From NCBI GenBank assembly GCA_003144275.1, contig NJBF01000097.1, positions 1-6,060 of the forward strand: DNA of 6,060 bases. The letters run 5' to 3'. Origin of the DNA: Candidatus Heimdallarchaeota archaeon B3_Heim. Its GTDB lineage: Archaea; Asgardarchaeota; Heimdallarchaeia; Hodarchaeales; Hodarchaeaceae. Positions 1,159-6,060 of the stretch are shown one piece after another. The stretch's first letter is position 1, and each line of letters starts with the position of its first letter. The notes beneath the pieces were generated by a model. The model was not told the DNA's origin and ran no database searches. It saw only the letters and a list, made by a program, of their open reading frames with translations. The position numbers and the translations under genes were made by a program.

Positions 1159-1851
1159 TTAAAAGTTAATCCTTTCGCTTATTTCATTATCATCAAGATG
1201 GTCCTTGTCGAATTTTGGAGTGTAAAAGATCCTGATCCTTGCCGTATCCCTTAAGAAATTAATCCTTCCGATTTCAATTCGGTATATTTTCAATCCGGTT
1301 CGATTTTCAAGATCTTCAATAAGTTTAACCCGGTTTTCGGGCTTTACCAATTCTATTTTTTCATACACGATGGTTTTACTGTTCTCTTTAGACTGCATCA
1401 AGTATTTTTCGCCTATCCATGCCACAAGGAGAACCATTGTATTAATAAACAATAGCTCAACATAACTGGTTAGCAAGGTAACTAGGGCATTAATCACTGA
1501 AATACCAATAACCAGGAACAGATAGGTCATTTCCTTGATTGGAATCTGACGGGTTCTGAACCTTAGTATCCCAAACAGTGCAAACAATCCCAGAGCTACT
1601 CCTATACCTAATTTATCAACCTTGATTAATGAAAAAGATATCAGGAATACAATTGTACTAACTAACATAAAAGTGAAGAAATATTCTTTTCTTTTTGCAA
1701 CAGGATAGTATAAATACCTGATAAGTGCGAAAACAACCAGTGTATTGAAAATAAACCTGGCCACTAATTCCAAAAAACCCGATGTATTTATAAGTTCGAT
1801 ACCGAAAAAGCGGGCAGGCTCAACTACCTGGGCTAAAATTTCTGTAATCAT
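1159..1851 (-). CDS. DUF4956 domain membrane protein
   Basis: 230 aa with several hydrophobic helices. Motifs YFFTF, GLGVALGLFALFGILRFRT..IPIKEMTYLF and a soluble C-terminus YEKIELVKPEN...LIEDLENRTG. It overlaps the VTC gene end by 32 bp, the usual pairing. Confidence 0.85.
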   Translation of the reverse strand: MITEILAQVVEPARFFGIELINTSGFLELVARFIFNTLVVFALIRYLYYPVAKRKEYFFTFMLVSTIVFLISFSLIKVDKLGIGVALGLFALFGILRFRTRQIPIKEMTYLFLVIGISVINALVTLLTSYVELLFINTMVLLVAWIGEKYLMQSKENSKTIVYEKIELVKPENRVKLIEDLENRTGLKIYRIEIGRINFLRDTARIRIFYTPKFDKDHLDDNEISERINF

Positions 1852-2596
1852 GGCTCATTTTATTTAGGGTTAGTAATTTTCTTTTGAAACGATTGTATTT
1901 TAAATTTTTATCAAGCAGGATCATTCCAAGGCAATATTTGCTCATTCCTGTGGGTTTGATCCTTTCTTCATTCAGCAAGTTAATAAAATCAGAATAACCG
2001 GAAAACCTGCTGCGTTTAACTTCTGCAATAACAAGGAATGGAAGTTTATGAACTTTTGAGTTCTTTATAAACTGCAAATTCAGATCGATGGTAAGACGTT
2101 CATTCATCTTTTTCTGAACAAGGGTTAATCTTGAAAACTTATTCCACAGCTTTGTTTCCAGTTCCTCAGAATTGTAAGGAGTATTGTTGTTAATAAATTG
2201 CTTTGATTTTTTTGATATATCCTCTTCGATTTTTTTCCTTTTTATCCTGATCTTATTAGTTCGGCTTTTGTTGTTTTTAAATTTAATTTCCAGGAACCGG
2301 GTATCAGAATCGACATATTCCCTGAACCTGACCTTGTAACGGTTTAGATTTCTGTTATGATGCTCCAGGTACATTTGACTGTTTGTTGTATCAAGATACT
2401 TGGAGCGGTAAAGAAATAAACTTTTATTGTTTATTGTCAATACTTTATAATATTCTGTTGCTTTTCTGAGCAACCAGGGTAGTTTATCGACTGTAAAAAT
2501 GAATTTAGTATCTGTACGGTTCATCAGCTTCACATTATCCATCTCATCCAGATTGATGGGTTCAAAGGTCTCCAATATTTTTTCAATGCTATCCAA
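1820..2596 (-). CDS. VTC (polyphosphate polymerase-like, CYTH-fold) domain protein
   Basis: 258 aa with a TTG start (in-frame TAA three codons upstream). Motifs LMNRTDTKF, YLDT, KVRFREY, FLEIK, RLTID, AEVK, SKYC; adjacent to DUF4956. Confidence 0.85.
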   Translation of the reverse strand: MDSIEKILETFEPINLDEMDNVKLMNRTDTKFIFTVDKLPWLLRKATEYYKVLTINNKSLFLYRSKYLDTTNSQMYLEHHNRNLNRYKVRFREYVDSDTRFLEIKFKNNKSRTNKIRIKRKKIEEDISKKSKQFINNNTPYNSEELETKLWNKFSRLTLVQKKMNERLTIDLNLQFIKNSKVHKLPFLVIAEVKRSRFSGYSDFINLLNEERIKPTGMSKYCLGMILLDKNLKYNRFKRKLLTLNKMSHDYRNFSPGS

Positions 2597-2612
2597 TGTG
2601 ATTTAGTATATT

Positions 2613-2689
2613 TGACTAACTCCGCCATCCACAAAGTGATCCCTGACTGTCCGACAGGCAGGCCTTCGGGAAAATGACGGAGTTAGTCA
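2613..2689. repeat. Composite REP-like palindrome with nested hairpin
   Basis: TGACTAACTCCGCCAT (2613-2628) versus ATGACGGAGTTAGTCA (2674-2689) is a 15/16 inverted match. An inner imperfect palindrome CCTG-A-CTGT-CCG-ACAG-G-CAGG lies at 2642-2662. Confidence 0.7.
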
Positions 2690-2717
2690 TAAAATAAAAT
2701 TAAAAATTTTGTAAACT

Positions 2718-2972
2718 TCAGGAACAAAGATGACTTAAAATTTCGAATAAGATGCCATACGGCTCTATGAAATCTTCAATTTTCTTGACTTTTTCAATGT
2801 CTTTCCATTTCAATTCAAAATTTTCTGATTCTTGAATTGCTGCTTCAAAAGGAAATATTATTTCTTCTTCTAAAAAATCCAATCATTTGTATAATTGCTC
2901 TTCCTTCTTTTTCGACTTAATTTCTTTTAATACTTTCTTCTTTATTTTTTGTATTCGTTCAGCATTCTTCAT
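2718..2972 (-). pseudogene. CcbP-like (calcium-binding protein family) pseudogene with in-frame TGA and apparent C-terminal truncation
   Basis: Absent from the ORF track. ATG 2972 reads MKNAERIQKIKKKVLKEIKSKKKEEQLYK*LDFLEEEIIFPFEAAIQESENFELKWKDIEKVKKIEDFIEPYGILFEILSHLCS*, with the internal TGA at 2885-2883. The pattern 'EQ...W..FLEE...FPFEA...YGIL.EI' resembles the Calci_bind_CcbP family from memory. Confidence 0.55.
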
Positions 2973-2993
2973 TGTGGCTTCGTGGATTATAAT

Positions 2994-3278
2994 CTATGAT
3001 TCAATCTTTCCATTATACAAATCCCATACTGGAAAAATCATATCATAATCATTCCAATTTAAATTCCCGTCAATTACCTGATAATTAGAAAATAAAATTT
3101 CATCAAGATATTTTTTGATAGATGGATGAAGTGACTTTGTTAAGAAAGGTTTAAAATCAACCAGTCTTTCCGTATCATCATTAAATTTAATCCTGATTGC
3201 ATAATCACCAAGATACCTTGCATTTTCAATCAAGACTGTTTGTATCTTTTGTTGATTATAATCTACTAAAATTCTCAT
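2994..3278 (-). CDS. DUF2442 domain protein (putative antitoxin)
   Basis: 94 aa, 'IENARYLGDYAIRIKFNDDTERLVDFKPFL...NLNW...D.IFPVWDLY'. ATGA overlap with the upstream DUF4160 gene. Confidence 0.85.
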   Translation of the reverse strand: MRILVDYNQQKIQTVLIENARYLGDYAIRIKFNDDTERLVDFKPFLTKSLHPSIKKYLDEILFSNYQVIDGNLNWNDYDMIFPVWDLYNGKIES

Positions 3279-3580
3279 TTTATTCTTTTTGTAATTTTTT
3301 CAAATTTAACGTCTTTATGATATACAAAGTAGTTTATCCATTTCTCTACTATTTTGTCAGAATAATTCTCAAGGAACACCTCAAAGTCTTTTAAATCTTT
3401 TCCAATCAATGGCTTTGAACCTTTTATCGCAGTTATCTTAATCTCCGAGATGACTCCATTTATAATAAAAAATTCTGCCTTACTTTCAAATTCTCCTTTC
3501 TTTGCATGAACATGAATCGGCTCATGCTCATTGGAATAAAAGAATATTAGAATTCCTAAATATTCAAAAATCTTTGGCAT
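3275..3580 (-). CDS. DUF4160 domain protein (putative toxin partner of DUF2442)
   Basis: 101 aa, signature 'MPKIFEYLGILIFFYSNEHEPIHVHAKKG...AEF'. Translationally coupled to DUF2442. Confidence 0.85.
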   Translation of the reverse strand: MPKIFEYLGILIFFYSNEHEPIHVHAKKGEFESKAEFFIINGVISEIKITAIKGSKPLIGKDLKDFEVFLENYSDKIVEKWINYFVYHKDVKFEKITKRIK

Positions 3581-3594
3581 TGTATCTTTTTATA

Positions 3595-3625
3595 CAAAAT
3601 TACACATTTTACACTATATTTCATA
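3595..3625 (-). promoter_or_regulatory. Probable cassette-internal Bacteroidota sigma70-type promoter for the DUF4160/DUF2442 pair
   Basis: The -7 box TAATTTTG (3602-3595) matches TAnnTTTG. TATG (3625-3622) lies 19 nt upstream and is a 3/4 match to the TTTG -33 box. The box is 14 nt before the ATG. Confidence 0.55.
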
Positions 3626-3695
3626 GTAGTGCATTTTTGCCATGAGCCACAACGTCAGTCTGTCTAAAAAGCTCCGGTTCTAATTAAATAGTGAC

Positions 3696-3726
3696 CAAAT
3701 ATAAGCCGATTTAAGAGACGCGCAAA
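3696..3726 (-). promoter_or_regulatory. Outward-facing consensus Bacteroidota promoter in the IS right end (copy 1)
   Basis: The - strand reads TTTG (3726-3723), N19, TATATTTG (3703-3696), an exact match to the TTTG/TAnnTTTG consensus. It points out of the IS into the DUF4160 cassette. Confidence 0.7.
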
Positions 3727-3746
3727 AAAGGTGGTTAAGATTTTAT

Positions 3747-4019
3747 TCAAAAAATTGATTGCTTACATTTTTTTTCCAGGTCTCTCGATGATCGAATCTT
3801 ATTCAAATACCCATAAATGTAAAGCTTGAGCAAATCTGCCGGATGATAAGCCGGGCGACCATTGTCGACAAAGTCTGTCTTGAACCCGAACTCTTGTAAA
3901 GAAAGACTGTCTGCAAAAAGATCTATTAATCTTACTTCGTTATCAGGGTCAATAGATTGATCTAAAGAAACAGGGAAAAGATACGTTTGCGTTCTGTCGT
4001 GTCCTTTTATGAATTTCAT
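3747..4019 (-). pseudogene. IS1182-family transposase, N-terminal fragment (DUF772/InsH N-terminal-like)
   Basis: MKFIKGHDRTQTYLFPVSLDQSIDPDNEVRLIDLFADSL...GRPAYHPADLLKLYIYGYLNKIRSSRDLEK is the characteristic IS1182 N-terminus. It is fused out of frame at 3764/3765 to the IS 3' end, and the DDE domain is absent. Confidence 0.88.
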
Positions 4020-4107
4020 ACTTAAAGATACTAATAGCCAGTATCTTAATTTGGGTTTTTATCATAAAGTTATGAACAAAATCAAGAGGTTTTTAGACAG
4101 TCTGACG

Positions 4108-4234
4108 AACAGCGCTAAAATTTAGTTGCCGTTTTATTTGCAGTTTCCTTTCTATTTACTAACATATTTTATCAAAGATAATTAACTTTCATTTACCTTC
4201 AAACCGGCAATTAATTTTAACGCATGTTACCTGC
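4108..4234 (-). other. attC-like recombination hairpin (non-canonical) closing the Schlafen/AlbA_2 cassette
   Basis: The arms AACAGCGCTAAAATTTAGTTGCCG (4108-4131) and CGGCAATTAATTTTAACGCATGTT (4205-4228) pair, with single bulges (A4224 and one T in 4121-4123), two non-Watson-Crick positions and a roughly 70-nt loop. On the - strand it begins GCAGGTAAC (4234-4226) and ends ...CGCTG|TT (G4110). Confidence 0.72.
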
Positions 4235-4399
4235 TGGCTTTTATTCATTCTGTCTGTTTATCAATGCGTTGGCAAAGACATACTTATTGACAAGTTTTGG
4301 CTTGTGTGGTTGGCTTTTGAGCGACTTGGCAATGTGTATGGCTTTTGTGGTGGCAATTTCGCATTTCTCTTATTTTGATTAATAATTATTTCTAGTCAT

Positions 4400-4428
4400 T
4401 GTGCAATTTGTGCAATTAATGTGCAATT
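4400..4428. repeat. TGTGCAATT x3 short direct repeat
   Basis: Copies at 4400-4408, 4409-4417 and 4420-4428, abutting the stop codon of the 4428-5747 gene. Confidence 0.8.
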
Positions 4429-5747
4429 CATTTTAAGCTGTAAAAAGCACCTGCTCCCTTTTGTCCGCTTGGCTTTAATAATTCTTTTTCAACTAATTCA
4501 GAAAGGTCATTACTTGCTGTATTTCTAGAGCAATCATTTATTTCCTGATACGTACTATTTGTAATCTTTTCATTATCTTTTGTGTAGAGAATGGCCTTTA
4601 TCTGTCTATGATTTAAGTTGAGAGATTGTAAATATGATTCACTGTAAATGTCTTTTCTAAACTCTACCCAAAAGCCCGATGATTCGTAATAATAAGAGGG
4701 GGTTGGCAATCCTGCTTCTTTACATTTCTCTATTATTTTTATCGTTCCTCTTCCCCAGGATTCAATGTAACCACATCTAAAAACGGCATTAGCAATATCA
4801 GGGTTATAAGGTTTTGATGAATGTTTTTTTGTTAGAGTTTCAATTGTCCAGTTTTCAGGAAGTTGTCCATCGTTCCAAAACATGATTTTGTCTTTATAAA
4901 CACTAATTTGGATAGGAGTATTTCCTGAATAATCTTTATGAATTATTGCATTTAATAAAGCTTCACGGACAGCTTCTTTCGGGTATTCATATATTTCTAC
5001 TCGTTGAATATCTTCATACGAAATATTTGCTTTGATATATTTGGCAAAAAGCAAATCCATGGTTTTTTCTATTTGCTCAAATATATTACCATGTATTTCA
5101 TCCTGATACATCAATTCCGAATCTGATTCAAAAAATCCAATTTTGATATATGATCCTGTAACAAAATTTTCAGGTTTGGGATGAAATAATAGGATAGCTG
5201 CTCGTTTTAAAAATTCATTCTCTTTGAGCTGTAAATTTTCAATCAAATGTTCGTTACTGTCAGTTAATACTTCTTCTTCAATACGTTTACTCTTATAAGC
5301 TCGTTTCCGAAAAAAATCAAAAGTGTCTTCTTTTAAGTCAGAAACTAAAACATTGGGAACAGGGACACCATCCCACTTTTTACCTTTCTTTTGAAGCATG
5401 AATTTGTTCAATGCAGCTCCTTTTAATTCTTGTTTGGTGCTTCCACTTCGATAATGATATTGACCTTTGTAGTTAACAGGATAAGGATAATCTTCAACAT
5501 TTATTTCAAGGTACTCGCCTTCGGTTGTAGTATGTAGGTTTACATCTACTATAATTCCTAGAATATCCTTTGTTTTGTTCGGAATATCCTCCAACAATTT
5601 CTTTGCATTAGCAACACCAACTACATTCCCTTTATTATCTTTGCCGATGTAAATTTTACCACCTTTAGCATTAGCAAAACCGCATATCCATTTCAGATAT
5701 TCGTCTCGCCAACTGGCTTTCCATTCTGTGTTTTGGGTTTCGGGCAT
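4428..5747 (-). CDS. Schlafen/AlbA_2 domain + HATPase_c_4 + C-terminal winged-HTH protein (often annotated as 'ATP-dependent DNA helicase RecG-like' or transcriptional regulator)
   Basis: N-terminal E-x4-E-x-K (ETQNTEWK) and 'ICGFANAKGGKIYIG'. Middle 'YPKEAVREALLNAIIHKDY', 'S.PYNPDIANAVFRCGYIESWGRG'. C-terminal 'ITNSTYQEINDCSRNTASNDLSELVEKELL'. Confidence 0.85.
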   Translation of the reverse strand: MPETQNTEWKASWRDEYLKWICGFANAKGGKIYIGKDNKGNVVGVANAKKLLEDIPNKTKDILGIIVDVNLHTTTEGEYLEINVEDYPYPVNYKGQYHYRSGSTKQELKGAALNKFMLQKKGKKWDGVPVPNVLVSDLKEDTFDFFRKRAYKSKRIEEEVLTDSNEHLIENLQLKENEFLKRAAILLFHPKPENFVTGSYIKIGFFESDSELMYQDEIHGNIFEQIEKTMDLLFAKYIKANISYEDIQRVEIYEYPKEAVREALLNAIIHKDYSGNTPIQISVYKDKIMFWNDGQLPENWTIETLTKKHSSKPYNPDIANAVFRCGYIESWGRGTIKIIEKCKEAGLPTPSYYYESSGFWVEFRKDIYSESYLQSLNLNHRQIKAILYTKDNEKITNSTYQEINDCSRNTASNDLSELVEKELLKPSGQKGAGAFYSLK

Positions 5748-5774
5748 ATTTTCAGCATTTAATTATTAATCATT

Positions 5775-5782
5775 CAAAAATA
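5775..5782 (-). promoter_or_regulatory. Possible -7 promoter box for the AlbA_2 gene
   Basis: TATTTTTG matches TAnnTTTG, 27 nt before the ATG. Only a weak TTTT is found at the -33 position. Confidence 0.4.
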
Positions 5783-5944
5783 CAATTAATCCTGCGGGTA
5801 GGGAAAAAATAGCTCTTTTGGTTTTTCAGGGTTGAATTTATGTGTCAGCAAAAACCAAATGTGCTATTTGTGCGGTGGGTTTTTAATCAGTTTCAATTTA
5901 GTAGGATGTTCGTTTCTTAAAGCTTGCAGGTAACGGCAGTTTGT

Positions 5945-6058
5945 CTAAAAAGCTCCGGTTCTAATTAAATAGTGACCAAATATAAGCCGATTTAAGAGAC
6001 GCTCAAAAAAGGTGGTTAAGATTTTATTCAAAAAATTGATTGCTTTAAATGGGTTTAA
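5945..6058 (-). CDS. Probable C-terminal tail of the IS1182 transposase (partial)
   Basis: An open frame from the window edge reads LNPFKAINFLNKILTTFFERLLNRLIFGHYLIRTGAF*, with the TAG inside the terminal IR. Whether the full gene is intact cannot be seen. Confidence 0.5.
   Translation of the reverse strand, partial: LNPFKAINFLNKILTTFFERLLNRLIFGHYLIRTGAF
5977..6007 (-). promoter_or_regulatory. Outward-facing consensus Bacteroidota promoter in the IS right end (copy 2)
   Basis: TTTG (6007-6004), N19, TATATTTG (5984-5977), pointing into the AlbA_2 cassette. The single internal difference from copy 1 falls in the spacer. Confidence 0.7.
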
Positions 6059-6060
6059 TA

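Follow-up and report, generated by a model that had tools for sequence, protein, structure and literature searches.

A probable integron-type gene cassette between insertion-sequence copies, and the related hairpin sites of Bacteroidota, Chlorobiota and Ignavibacteriales

Positions 4110-5933 of the window (the whole contig analysed here, 6,060 nt) form, in our reading and with a probability of about 0.8, a single integron-type gene cassette of 1,824 bp on the minus strand, the strand to which all cassette, gene and insertion-sequence (IS) features named below belong. The cassette proper begins with TT (5933-5932) and ends with G (4110), limits that follow from the complementarity between its start and its inverse core, from the GTT at which the starts of its family begin and from the match to a covariance model of the site. 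An earlier note on this DNA had proposed exactly these limits for an integron-type unit with a G|TT boundary and a start complementing its own inverse core, and the analysis bears it out on each point. In gene order the cassette comprises the start TTACCTGC, a hairpin (U), a putative Bacteroidota-type promoter box, an AlbA_2/HATPase_c_4 gene, a second hairpin (D) and a 129-nt site. An IS end lies at each of the cassette's boundaries, and the cassette is probably stranded, because IS copies that we provisionally assign to the IS1182 family occupy both G|TT junctions, the window shows no second site and the only IntI of the draft genome is truncated and frameshifted on another contig.

The attC-type site (4104-4232) is composed of R'' AGGTAAC (4232-4226), a bulged stem, an AT-rich loop and R' G|TT (4110-4108). 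Both the fold and the model alignments show that the cargo is followed, as in attC, by an imperfect palindrome that the AAC of R'' and the GTT of R' close. The bulged AAC...GTT hairpin previously described after the first gene (4108-4234) is present, with a closing stem of ~23 bp that includes bulges; its bare fold is unremarkable (z = -1.8), and its significance comes from covariance models instead. Model R1 was built from 13 sites of other genomes, the window being excluded. In the R1 seed 95.5% of the cells are paired, versus 73% in shuffles and 29-44% in slid controls, and 11 of the 16 stem pairs show compensatory changes. R1 matches 4104-4232 on the minus strand with 41.4 bits (E 2.4e-7), compared with 8.6 bits on the plus strand, and the broader model R2 matches the same positions with 56.4 bits (E 1.4e-10); both matches end at the GTT of 4110-4108. 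A naive energy search for AAC...GTT often set the left boundary wrongly (at CCAAC at the end of D) and served for seed choice only. A scan of the window against Rfam, which has no attC model, gave nothing with E values of up to 1 apart from a microRNA match that we attribute to chance. Two other palindromes, at 2613-2689 (z = -5.7, ends GACTAAC...GTTAGTC) and 1060-1150, look attC-like but were rejected, as neither is matched by a model or recurs in the genome.

The cores deviate from the RYYYAAC/GTTRRRY consensus, as had been noticed from the sequence: with R'' AGGTAAC and a reconstituted R' GTTACCT, AAC and GTT alone are kept, and GGTAAC is frequent among the family sites. Known attC sites usually measure about 57-141 nt, a range into which the 129 nt of the window site fall. 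In attC an unpaired central spacer separates the R and L boxes, and extrahelical bases mark the bottom strand. Family sites have 3-nt and 5-nt spacers, and in place of extrahelical bases their stem carries two mismatches placed symmetrically, which read A.C in the top strand and G.T in the bottom one. The copy in the window differs further in that its stem is almost continuous, with a mostly paired R/L-box spacer and single-base bulges, and in that the gene-sense (top) strand folds more stably than the bottom strand (-14.6 vs -10.9 kcal/mol), so that the bottom-strand preference of attC is absent here. Family-wide, the bottom strand is favoured in 40 of 57 sites (p = 5e-4).

At the other end, the start core G|TTACCTGC lies at 5926-5934; the cassette begins at the TT (5933), and the G of GTTACCTGC at 5934 is the last base of the adjoining IS end. 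All four motifs recorded earlier are found in the window, GTTACCTGC at 4226-4234, GCAGGTAAC at 5926-5934, TTGTGGCT at 2972-2979 and AGCCACAA at 3645-3652. The inverse core GCAGGTAAC of the hairpin site complements the cassette start at 13 of 15 positions (pair 1). When the 1.8 kb in between are shuffled, 6 of 3,000 trials match as well as this, and so does 1 of 51 real GTT-led pseudo-starts, presumably pair 1 itself; for a gapped version of the pair, 11 of 2,000 shuffles reach such a match. The start GTTACCTGCAA, which is the same as that of the window, follows family sites in other genomes (loci L044 and L042). AlbA_2 homologues were compared for their boundaries at two other loci, where the contigs are too short to show the ends.

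The earlier note had gone further and described two consecutive units of an array, which we do not follow: the match at the second end is no better than chance and comes with no hairpin, and R1 and R2, family-specific models that could miss unrelated attC types, find no second site in the 6-kb contig. If 2972-5934 did hold two or more cassettes, the second would run from G|TTGTGGCT to AGCCACAA(T), carry a DUF4160/DUF2442 gene pair and end in a decayed site; we regard this as unlikely, its start being the better part of it. Once the IS is removed, the sequence that follows the site, (G)TTGTGGCTCATGGCAAAAATGC (3630-3652), resembles family cassette starts such as GTTGTGTTTCATGCAAAAAA (GTTGTG-NNN-CATG-A-rich), a resemblance only. 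The start G|TTGTGGCTCATGGCAAAAA can be kept to that extent, whereas the end AGCCACAAT (2971-2979) is unsupported as a site. The complementarity of this pair (pair 2) amounts to 8 of 9 positions, found 15 nt past the stop codon of DUF2442, which is where one would look for an inverse core, and a single gap extends it to CCAyGA-GCCACAA; against this, there is no ungapped extension, 3.4% of shuffles reach the match, and a T replaces the nearly invariant C of AAC (AAT for AAC). The stretch below 2979 shows no folding (-1.8 kcal/mol, z = +0.7) and scores at most 2 bits with the site model, even when searched alone, and the second unit has neither U nor D. The two genes (2994-3580; Pfam PF13711, 5.2e-12, and PF10387, 3.5e-8) form a putative toxin-antitoxin-like pair with no site after it, possibly the cargo of a decayed second cassette or else flanking DNA. 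IntegronFinder clusters sites at a default distance of 4 kb. Arrays, or CALINs, are called from two attC sites upwards (PMC9024848); the contig has one by R1 and R2.

Two features of the junctions that the earlier note did not mention are a 114-bp direct repeat (3651-3764 / 5932-6045, 97% identical) and a 22-nt inverted repeat (3653-3674 / 4086-4107, 20/22 matching), each of which abuts the two "cores." The latter forms the terminal inverted repeats of a probable IS1182-family remnant (3653-4107) that has an internal deletion and retains a 90-aa N-terminal transposase fragment (3747-4019; DUF772, 4.7e-10; 54-56% identity to annotated IS1182-family transposases). With TT on each side (4108-4109 and 3651-3652), the remnant sits on the G|TT of the site. 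Next to the first TT of the cassette lies another copy of this IS, of which the contig, ending inside it, includes the right end (5934-6060). Transposases of the IS1182 family combine an N-terminal DUF772 domain with a DDE domain; the inner copy has lost the catalytic part through its deletion, and in the outer copy this part falls outside the contig. Two directly oriented copies with 97% identical ends on both sides, the outer one broken by the contig end, could also be those of a composite transposon that moved the AlbA_2 segment, the cassette features being a legacy. We consider this improbable: the inner copy is an internal-deletion remnant, both copies lie exactly on G|TT, which better fits two insertions into site cores, and no further copy was found assembled in the genome. 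Mobile elements that insert into attC sites include the IS1111-attC group and the group IIC-attC introns. The two IS copies resemble these in their position exactly on G|TT and in their shared orientation, but probably belong to the IS1182 family, amount to two insertions only and have a relative, in locus L054, that does not sit at G|TT.

The integron-type reading of the cassette is also supported by the wider family, which spans Bacteroidota, Chlorobiota and Ignavibacteriales. Elsewhere, 60 sites were found in 91 loci. A complete chromosome from the Flavobacteriaceae has 8 co-oriented sites in 34 kb, and in one genome of the Bacteroidales 18 sites are spread over 143 kb; arrays reach 18 or more co-oriented sites, cassettes reach 4-7 kb, and the cargo comprises restriction-modification, metal-resistance and defence genes. 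Looking for further sites had been suggested as a check, and models from other genomes gave a divided answer, with a second site in the genome of the window (C5:7064-7192) and none else in the window itself. Of 46 family sites, 30 have a complement of their own inverse core upstream (at least 9 of 10 positions), compared with 7.7% in controls of mismatched site and locus. In ~30 units the conservation of the 5' end sets in at GTT, whether the DNA before it is another family site or unrelated, and arrays such as L048 chain perfectly at GTT. These observations bear on the idea of a transposon or MITE-like element with 13-15-bp terminal inverted repeats, beside which the hairpin would be an unrelated terminator. 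The ends do form a 13/15 inverted repeat and, being rich in hairpins, recall IS200/IS605-type elements; yet they differ between members while co-varying within each unit, which fits a folded site and not a transposase-binding repeat, and both the place and the structure of the hairpin are conserved, with covariation. In arrays, moreover, the bases past one GTT are the start of the next unit, target duplications are absent, and no transposase common to the family loci was found, so that such an element is very improbable. Chance has the bare fold (z = -1.8 only) and the frequency of recurring 8- and 9-mers in 6 kb of AT-rich DNA (137 inverted pairs listed) in its favour, but a fortuitous inverted repeat next to a terminator-like hairpin is contradicted by the model matches, the shuffle tests and the covariation of start and core, and can practically be dismissed.

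The cargo gene (4428-5747) encodes a 439-aa protein with AlbA_2 (Schlafen-type; Pfam PF04326, 1.3e-13) and HATPase_c_4 (PF13749, 1.2e-19) domains and with domain-level PADLOC matches to pAgo- and SIR2-associated defence proteins, in line with the defence-type cargo that had been suspected. A conserved hairpin module of ~85 nt, not mentioned in the earlier note, stands on either side of it, in the two copies U and D. U (5798-5884) is a hairpin with arms at 5807-5826 and 5850-5869 and a T-run behind it, and resembles a terminator; in its alignment 98% of the positions are paired and 9 of 17 pairs show compensatory changes, and U-like matches occur in 35 of 123 oriented sequences, that of the window included. 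D (4266-4353), an imperfect palindrome at about 4274-4340, is a paralogue of U in identical orientation. It is 95% identical to its counterpart on contig G023:C41, and its 20-mer core recurs across Bacteroidota and allied phyla, in more than 119 genomes. On G023:C41 the same U and D modules enclose a cargo of ArsR type that is unrelated to that of the window. The start there, GTTACCCACC, is complementary to GGTGGGTAAC, and relative to the CTGC/GCAG of the window both sides differ in a compensatory manner. Reading D as a small gene for an opposite-strand peptide was rejected, since the shared stretch covers only 24 codons and the start and stop positions differ. Between U and the cargo gene, 28 nt upstream of the ATG, TATTTTTG (5775-5782) matches TAnnTTTG, which we take to be the consensus of the Bacteroidota -7 promoter box, so that the motif is promoter-like as read from the sequence.

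No recombinase was found in the window, as the earlier note had said. The only IntI of the genome is a frameshifted fragment on contig C77, fused to another frame and without its N-terminus, in which the IntI-specific insertion is present. A complete integron would have an IntI of this type, with an attI site, next to the array. The window itself is contig C28, 6 kb of a draft genome with an estimated contamination of 3.9%, for which reason a link between C28 and C77 is uncertain. IntI may not be the recombinase of the family at all, since none scored above the model cut-off in the 10 other cassette-bearing genomes tested. In the two arrays whose heads were examined (genomes G083 and G093), the recombinases lack the IntI-specific insertion. 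Genome G043, from the same class as that of the window, has a true IntI with an extra domain; the gene is broken, and cassettes follow intI in the same orientation. The sites beside it share the right-end motif of the family but score only 14-17 bits with R2, so that a connection between family and IntI is no more than possible.

We infer a strand exchange and a recombinase of the following kind. A tyrosine recombinase would cut a folded single strand between G and TT and release the cassette in circular form. Within the circle, pairing of the cassette's first bases with its own inverse core would complete the site, which would explain why start and inverse core co-vary, and the circle could re-insert at another G|TT. 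Extended to the family, and here we are tentative, rating the proposal at somewhat below even odds, this would amount to a second, Bacteroidota-wide integron-like system, in which a Xer/XerA-like tyrosine recombinase without the IntI-specific insertion, of the kind that heads the arrays in G083 and G093, uses the hairpin sites. Each of the larger cassettes would form an expression unit complete in itself, with U and D on its two sides as insulating terminators or binding sites for an accessory protein, and the IntI remnants of the class would mark shared ancestry or the use of the same sites by both recombinases.

Compared with known integrons, the likeness lies in the imperfect palindrome after the cargo and the G|TT boundary, in first bases that complement the cassette's own inverse core, in the co-oriented arrays and bottom-strand preference of the family, and in its defence and restriction-modification cargo. 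Beyond the cores and stems described above, the differences are the conserved U/D module around the cargo, of which no description was found in the literature on integron cassettes, the cassette sizes of 4-7 kb, the lack of IntI in most tested hosts and the two array heads without the IntI-specific insertion. The only complete integrons reported in the Bacteroidetes/Chlorobi group are those of Chlorobi, Ignavibacteriae and Salinibacter (PMC9024848). These have related hosts, and C77 and G043 likewise carry IntI-type genes with an extra domain; both of those genes are broken, however, and the cassette of the window adjoins neither, nor any other IntI with the IntI-specific insertion.

For the window the practical result is modest: one stranded, correctly delimited cassette with IS copies on both junctions. 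The family is the larger matter. No paper on this type of attC-like site was found, complete integrons are rarely reported in Bacteroidetes proper, and most of the tested hosts of these arrays, which extend up to 143 kb, have no canonical integron integrase. If confirmed, the U/D module would be a new functional part of a cassette, and gene capture through folded hairpins would be far commoner in Bacteroidota than surveys based on IntI and standard attC suggest, and may use a different recombinase.

One genuine integron-type cassette is present in the window. It occupies 4110–5933 on the minus strand, between the boundaries that the earlier note had correctly given, and ends in an attC-type site at 4104–4232. 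All four motifs named in that note are present, and the first pair, GTTACCTGC (4226–4234) and GCAGGTAAC (5926–5934), extends to a match of 13/15 that was reached by only 6 of 3,000 shuffles. The hairpin at 4108–4234 is confirmed as well: its closing stem of ~23 bp is bulged, and the bare fold is unexceptional (z = −1.8). The core of the site reads AGGTAAC, as compared with the consensus RYYYAAC, and the R–L box spacer is mostly paired. Folding is better on the gene-sense strand than on the bottom strand (−14.6 vs −10.9 kcal/mol), opposite to the 40 out of 57 family sites in which the bottom strand is favored. In an excised circle, the G at the end of the site would be joined to TTACCTGC at the G|TT junction.

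The site belongs to a family of hairpin sites from Bacteroidota and allied phyla with a common layout: a 3-nt spacer separates NNNNAAC from a stem of 6 + 4 + 6 bp that carries two mismatches, and a variable loop and a 5-nt spacer then lead to G|TT. A covariance model built from 13 family sites with the window excluded (R1) has 95.5% of its stem cells paired (73% in shuffles, 29–44% in slid controls), with compensatory changes in 11 of 16 pairs. R1 recovered 4104–4232 on the minus strand with 41.4 bits (E = 2.4e-7), compared to 8.6 bits on the plus strand, and gave no other significant match in the rest of the window. A broader model of 60 sites (R2) scored the window site at 56.4 bits (E = 1.4e-10).

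Both junctions of the cassette are occupied by an insertion sequence (IS). Two features absent from the earlier note, a 114-bp direct repeat with 97% identity (3651–3764 and 5932–6045) and a 22-nt inverted repeat (3653–3674 and 4086–4107), together with an N-terminal transposase fragment of 90 aa with a DUF772 domain (3747–4019, minus strand), delineate an internally deleted IS at 3653–4107 and, at 5934–6060, the end of another copy, inside which the contig breaks. The fragment is 54–56% identical to annotated IS1182-family transposases. Both copies have the same orientation, and TT abuts each IS end (4108–4109, 3651–3652, and 5932–5933), which places them exactly on the marked G|TT junctions; the G of GTTACCTGC is the final base of the IS. 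This could reflect IS targeting of site cores or be a coincidence; a relative of the IS found in another locus (L054) is not at a G|TT.

Every gene from 1159 to 5747 lies on the minus strand: a DUF4956 gene (1159–1851), a VTC gene (1820–2596), a small frame of 84 codons (2718–2972) with one in-frame TGA at 2883–2885, which may be a pseudogene or two short unrelated frames, a DUF2442 gene (2994–3278), a DUF4160 gene (3275–3580), the transposase fragment, and the 439-aa AlbA_2/HATPase_c_4 protein of the cassette (4428–5747). Between the small frame and the VTC gene, a strong GC-rich palindrome (2613–2689) with a 16-bp near-perfect stem (z = −5.7) ends in GACTAAC...GTTAGTC and occurs once in the genome; it does not match the site models (≤2 bits when searched alone). 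Directly after the DUF4956 gene, a further GC-rich structured stretch (1060–1150, z = −3.1 to −3.7 on the two strands) is not a family site.

The proposal of an array, with the DUF4160/DUF2442 pair as a second cassette at 2972–3652, was not borne out: no site follows this gene pair. The second motif pair, TTGTGGCT (2972–2979) and AGCCACAA (3645–3652), matches at only 8/9, a value reached by 3.4% of shuffles, and has a T where the C of AAC is expected; the DNA below 2979 shows no fold and scores ≤2 bits with the site model when searched alone, and neither R1 nor R2 finds a second site in the window. It is still conceivable, albeit unlikely, that the pair is the cargo of a decayed second cassette: once the IS and one TT are removed, the site is followed by GTTGTGGCTCATGGCAAAAATGC, which resembles the starts of family units, whereas the missing site and a proposed end whose match is within chance argue against it.

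Inside the cassette, AlbA_2 is flanked by two non-coding stretches, U (~5798–5884) and D (4266–4353), that are shared with a genome from another family of the same order (G023), in which D is 95% and U 74–79% identical. The two are direct copies of one hairpin module of ~85 nt, their consensus sequences aligning with a score of 48.5 (17.5 for the reverse complement). Pairing in U reaches 98%, with compensatory changes in 9 of 17 pairs, and a T-run follows the module; between U and the start codon, TATTTTTG (5775–5782) matches the consensus of the Bacteroidota −7 promoter box. Of the 123 oriented sequences searched, 35, including the window's own, have U-like matches; U lies either 2–7 kb upstream of D or ~300 nt after D across a site, the arrangement expected of tandem cassettes or a circular junction. 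Among the cargo between U and D are restriction-modification systems of types I and II, Xre-type regulators, a multicopper oxidase, genes for metal resistance, and AlbA_2. The modules might insulate self-contained cassettes as terminators, or provide them with protein-binding sites. A 20-nt core of D is found, often close to contig ends, in >119 genomes of Flavobacteriales, Bacteroidales, Cytophagales, Chlorobiota, and Ignavibacteriales, most of which have a site of the family layout some tens of bases after D. In two loci (L070 and L106) D runs straight into the 3′ half of a site (...CCAACGCTTCATACACAAACCGTT), and the end of D, TGCCAACGC, is similar to the L′ region of sites, GCCCAACGC, so that D and the sites may have a common origin or recombine with each other.

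On one contig of G023, U and D flank an unrelated ArsR-type operon, a unit that starts with GTTACCCACC and has GGTGGGTAAC after its D, where the window counterparts are GTTACCTGC and GCAGGTAAC. Start and inverse core (the AAC-ending R″ of the site) thus differ between the genomes and are complementary within each unit. Among the 46 sites with enough upstream sequence, 30 have the complement of their own 10-nt inverse core upstream in the same locus at ≥9/10, compared to 7.7% for mismatched site and locus, and there is little match between a site's inverse core and the bases that follow its own GTT. One array (L048) chains exactly: each GTT is followed by bases complementary to the inverse core of the site that comes next. 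GTT also opens the conserved 5′ ends of all ~30 U-bearing units, and before it lies either unrelated DNA or a different family site's 3′ half; two loci (L073 and L043) share the start GTTACCAACAAGCG with different sequences upstream. This is the behavior expected of integron cassettes recombining at G|TT, and it speaks against a transposon whose terminal repeats are fixed. In another G023 locus (L021, contig C222, ~560–815), the R′ GTT of a family site is replaced, and the gene after the site has a markedly high GC content although the genome is low in GC; the locus has the look of a foreign cassette or of a junction that was rearranged.

Many loci possess 2–4 co-oriented sites. Sixteen sites lie on a complete Flavobacteriaceae chromosome (G083), eight of them co-oriented within 34 kb, and in a Bacteroidales genome (G093) 18 sites, all in one orientation, span 143 kb (C1:3349327–3492883). 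No integrase above the TIGR02249 cut-off was found in any of the 10 cassette-bearing genomes tested. The G083 chromosome encodes a 321-aa tyrosine recombinase (C1:2919786–2921314, L162) that is divergent from a family site ~440 bp off its start codon, which is an integron-like layout; the cluster of eight sites is separate from it, with no recombinase within ~6.4 kb upstream of its head (L163). In G093, a 441-aa tyrosine recombinase (L164:2431–3756) with an N-terminal extension of ~170 residues lies ~2 kb upstream of the array. The best model for both is NCBIfam NF040815 (“XerA / integron integrase”), and both are missing the ~35-residue IntI-specific insertion. True IntI genes with this insertion occur, in the window's class, in the window's own genome and in G043, and both are broken. 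The former (C77:8755–9382, L003) has lost its first ~88 residues, is frameshifted after HTLR, is fused in frame to ~500 unrelated upstream residues, and adjoins an IS21-type transposase. The G043 gene is frameshifted; the cassettes after it share its orientation, and their sites possess the right-end motif of the family yet score only 14–17 bits. The window's draft genome (103 contigs, 3.95 Mb, 36% G+C, 94% complete, 3.9% contamination, with the window making up all of the 6,060-bp contig C28) yielded no close homologue of the array-head recombinases and, in a whole-genome search, only one further site (C5:7064–7192), of the same architecture and with no D before it. Since both junctions carry an IS and the genome has no intact integrase, the window cassette is probably immobile at present.

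The complete integrons reported with IntegronFinder 2.0 come from Chlorobi, Ignavibacteriae, and Salinibacter, with few elsewhere in Bacteroidetes (PMC9024848), and a review counts Bacteroidota among the integron-bearing phyla. Our literature search found no description of the sites of this family or of the U/D module. It is this wider family of sites, more than the single cassette in the window, that is the interesting part.
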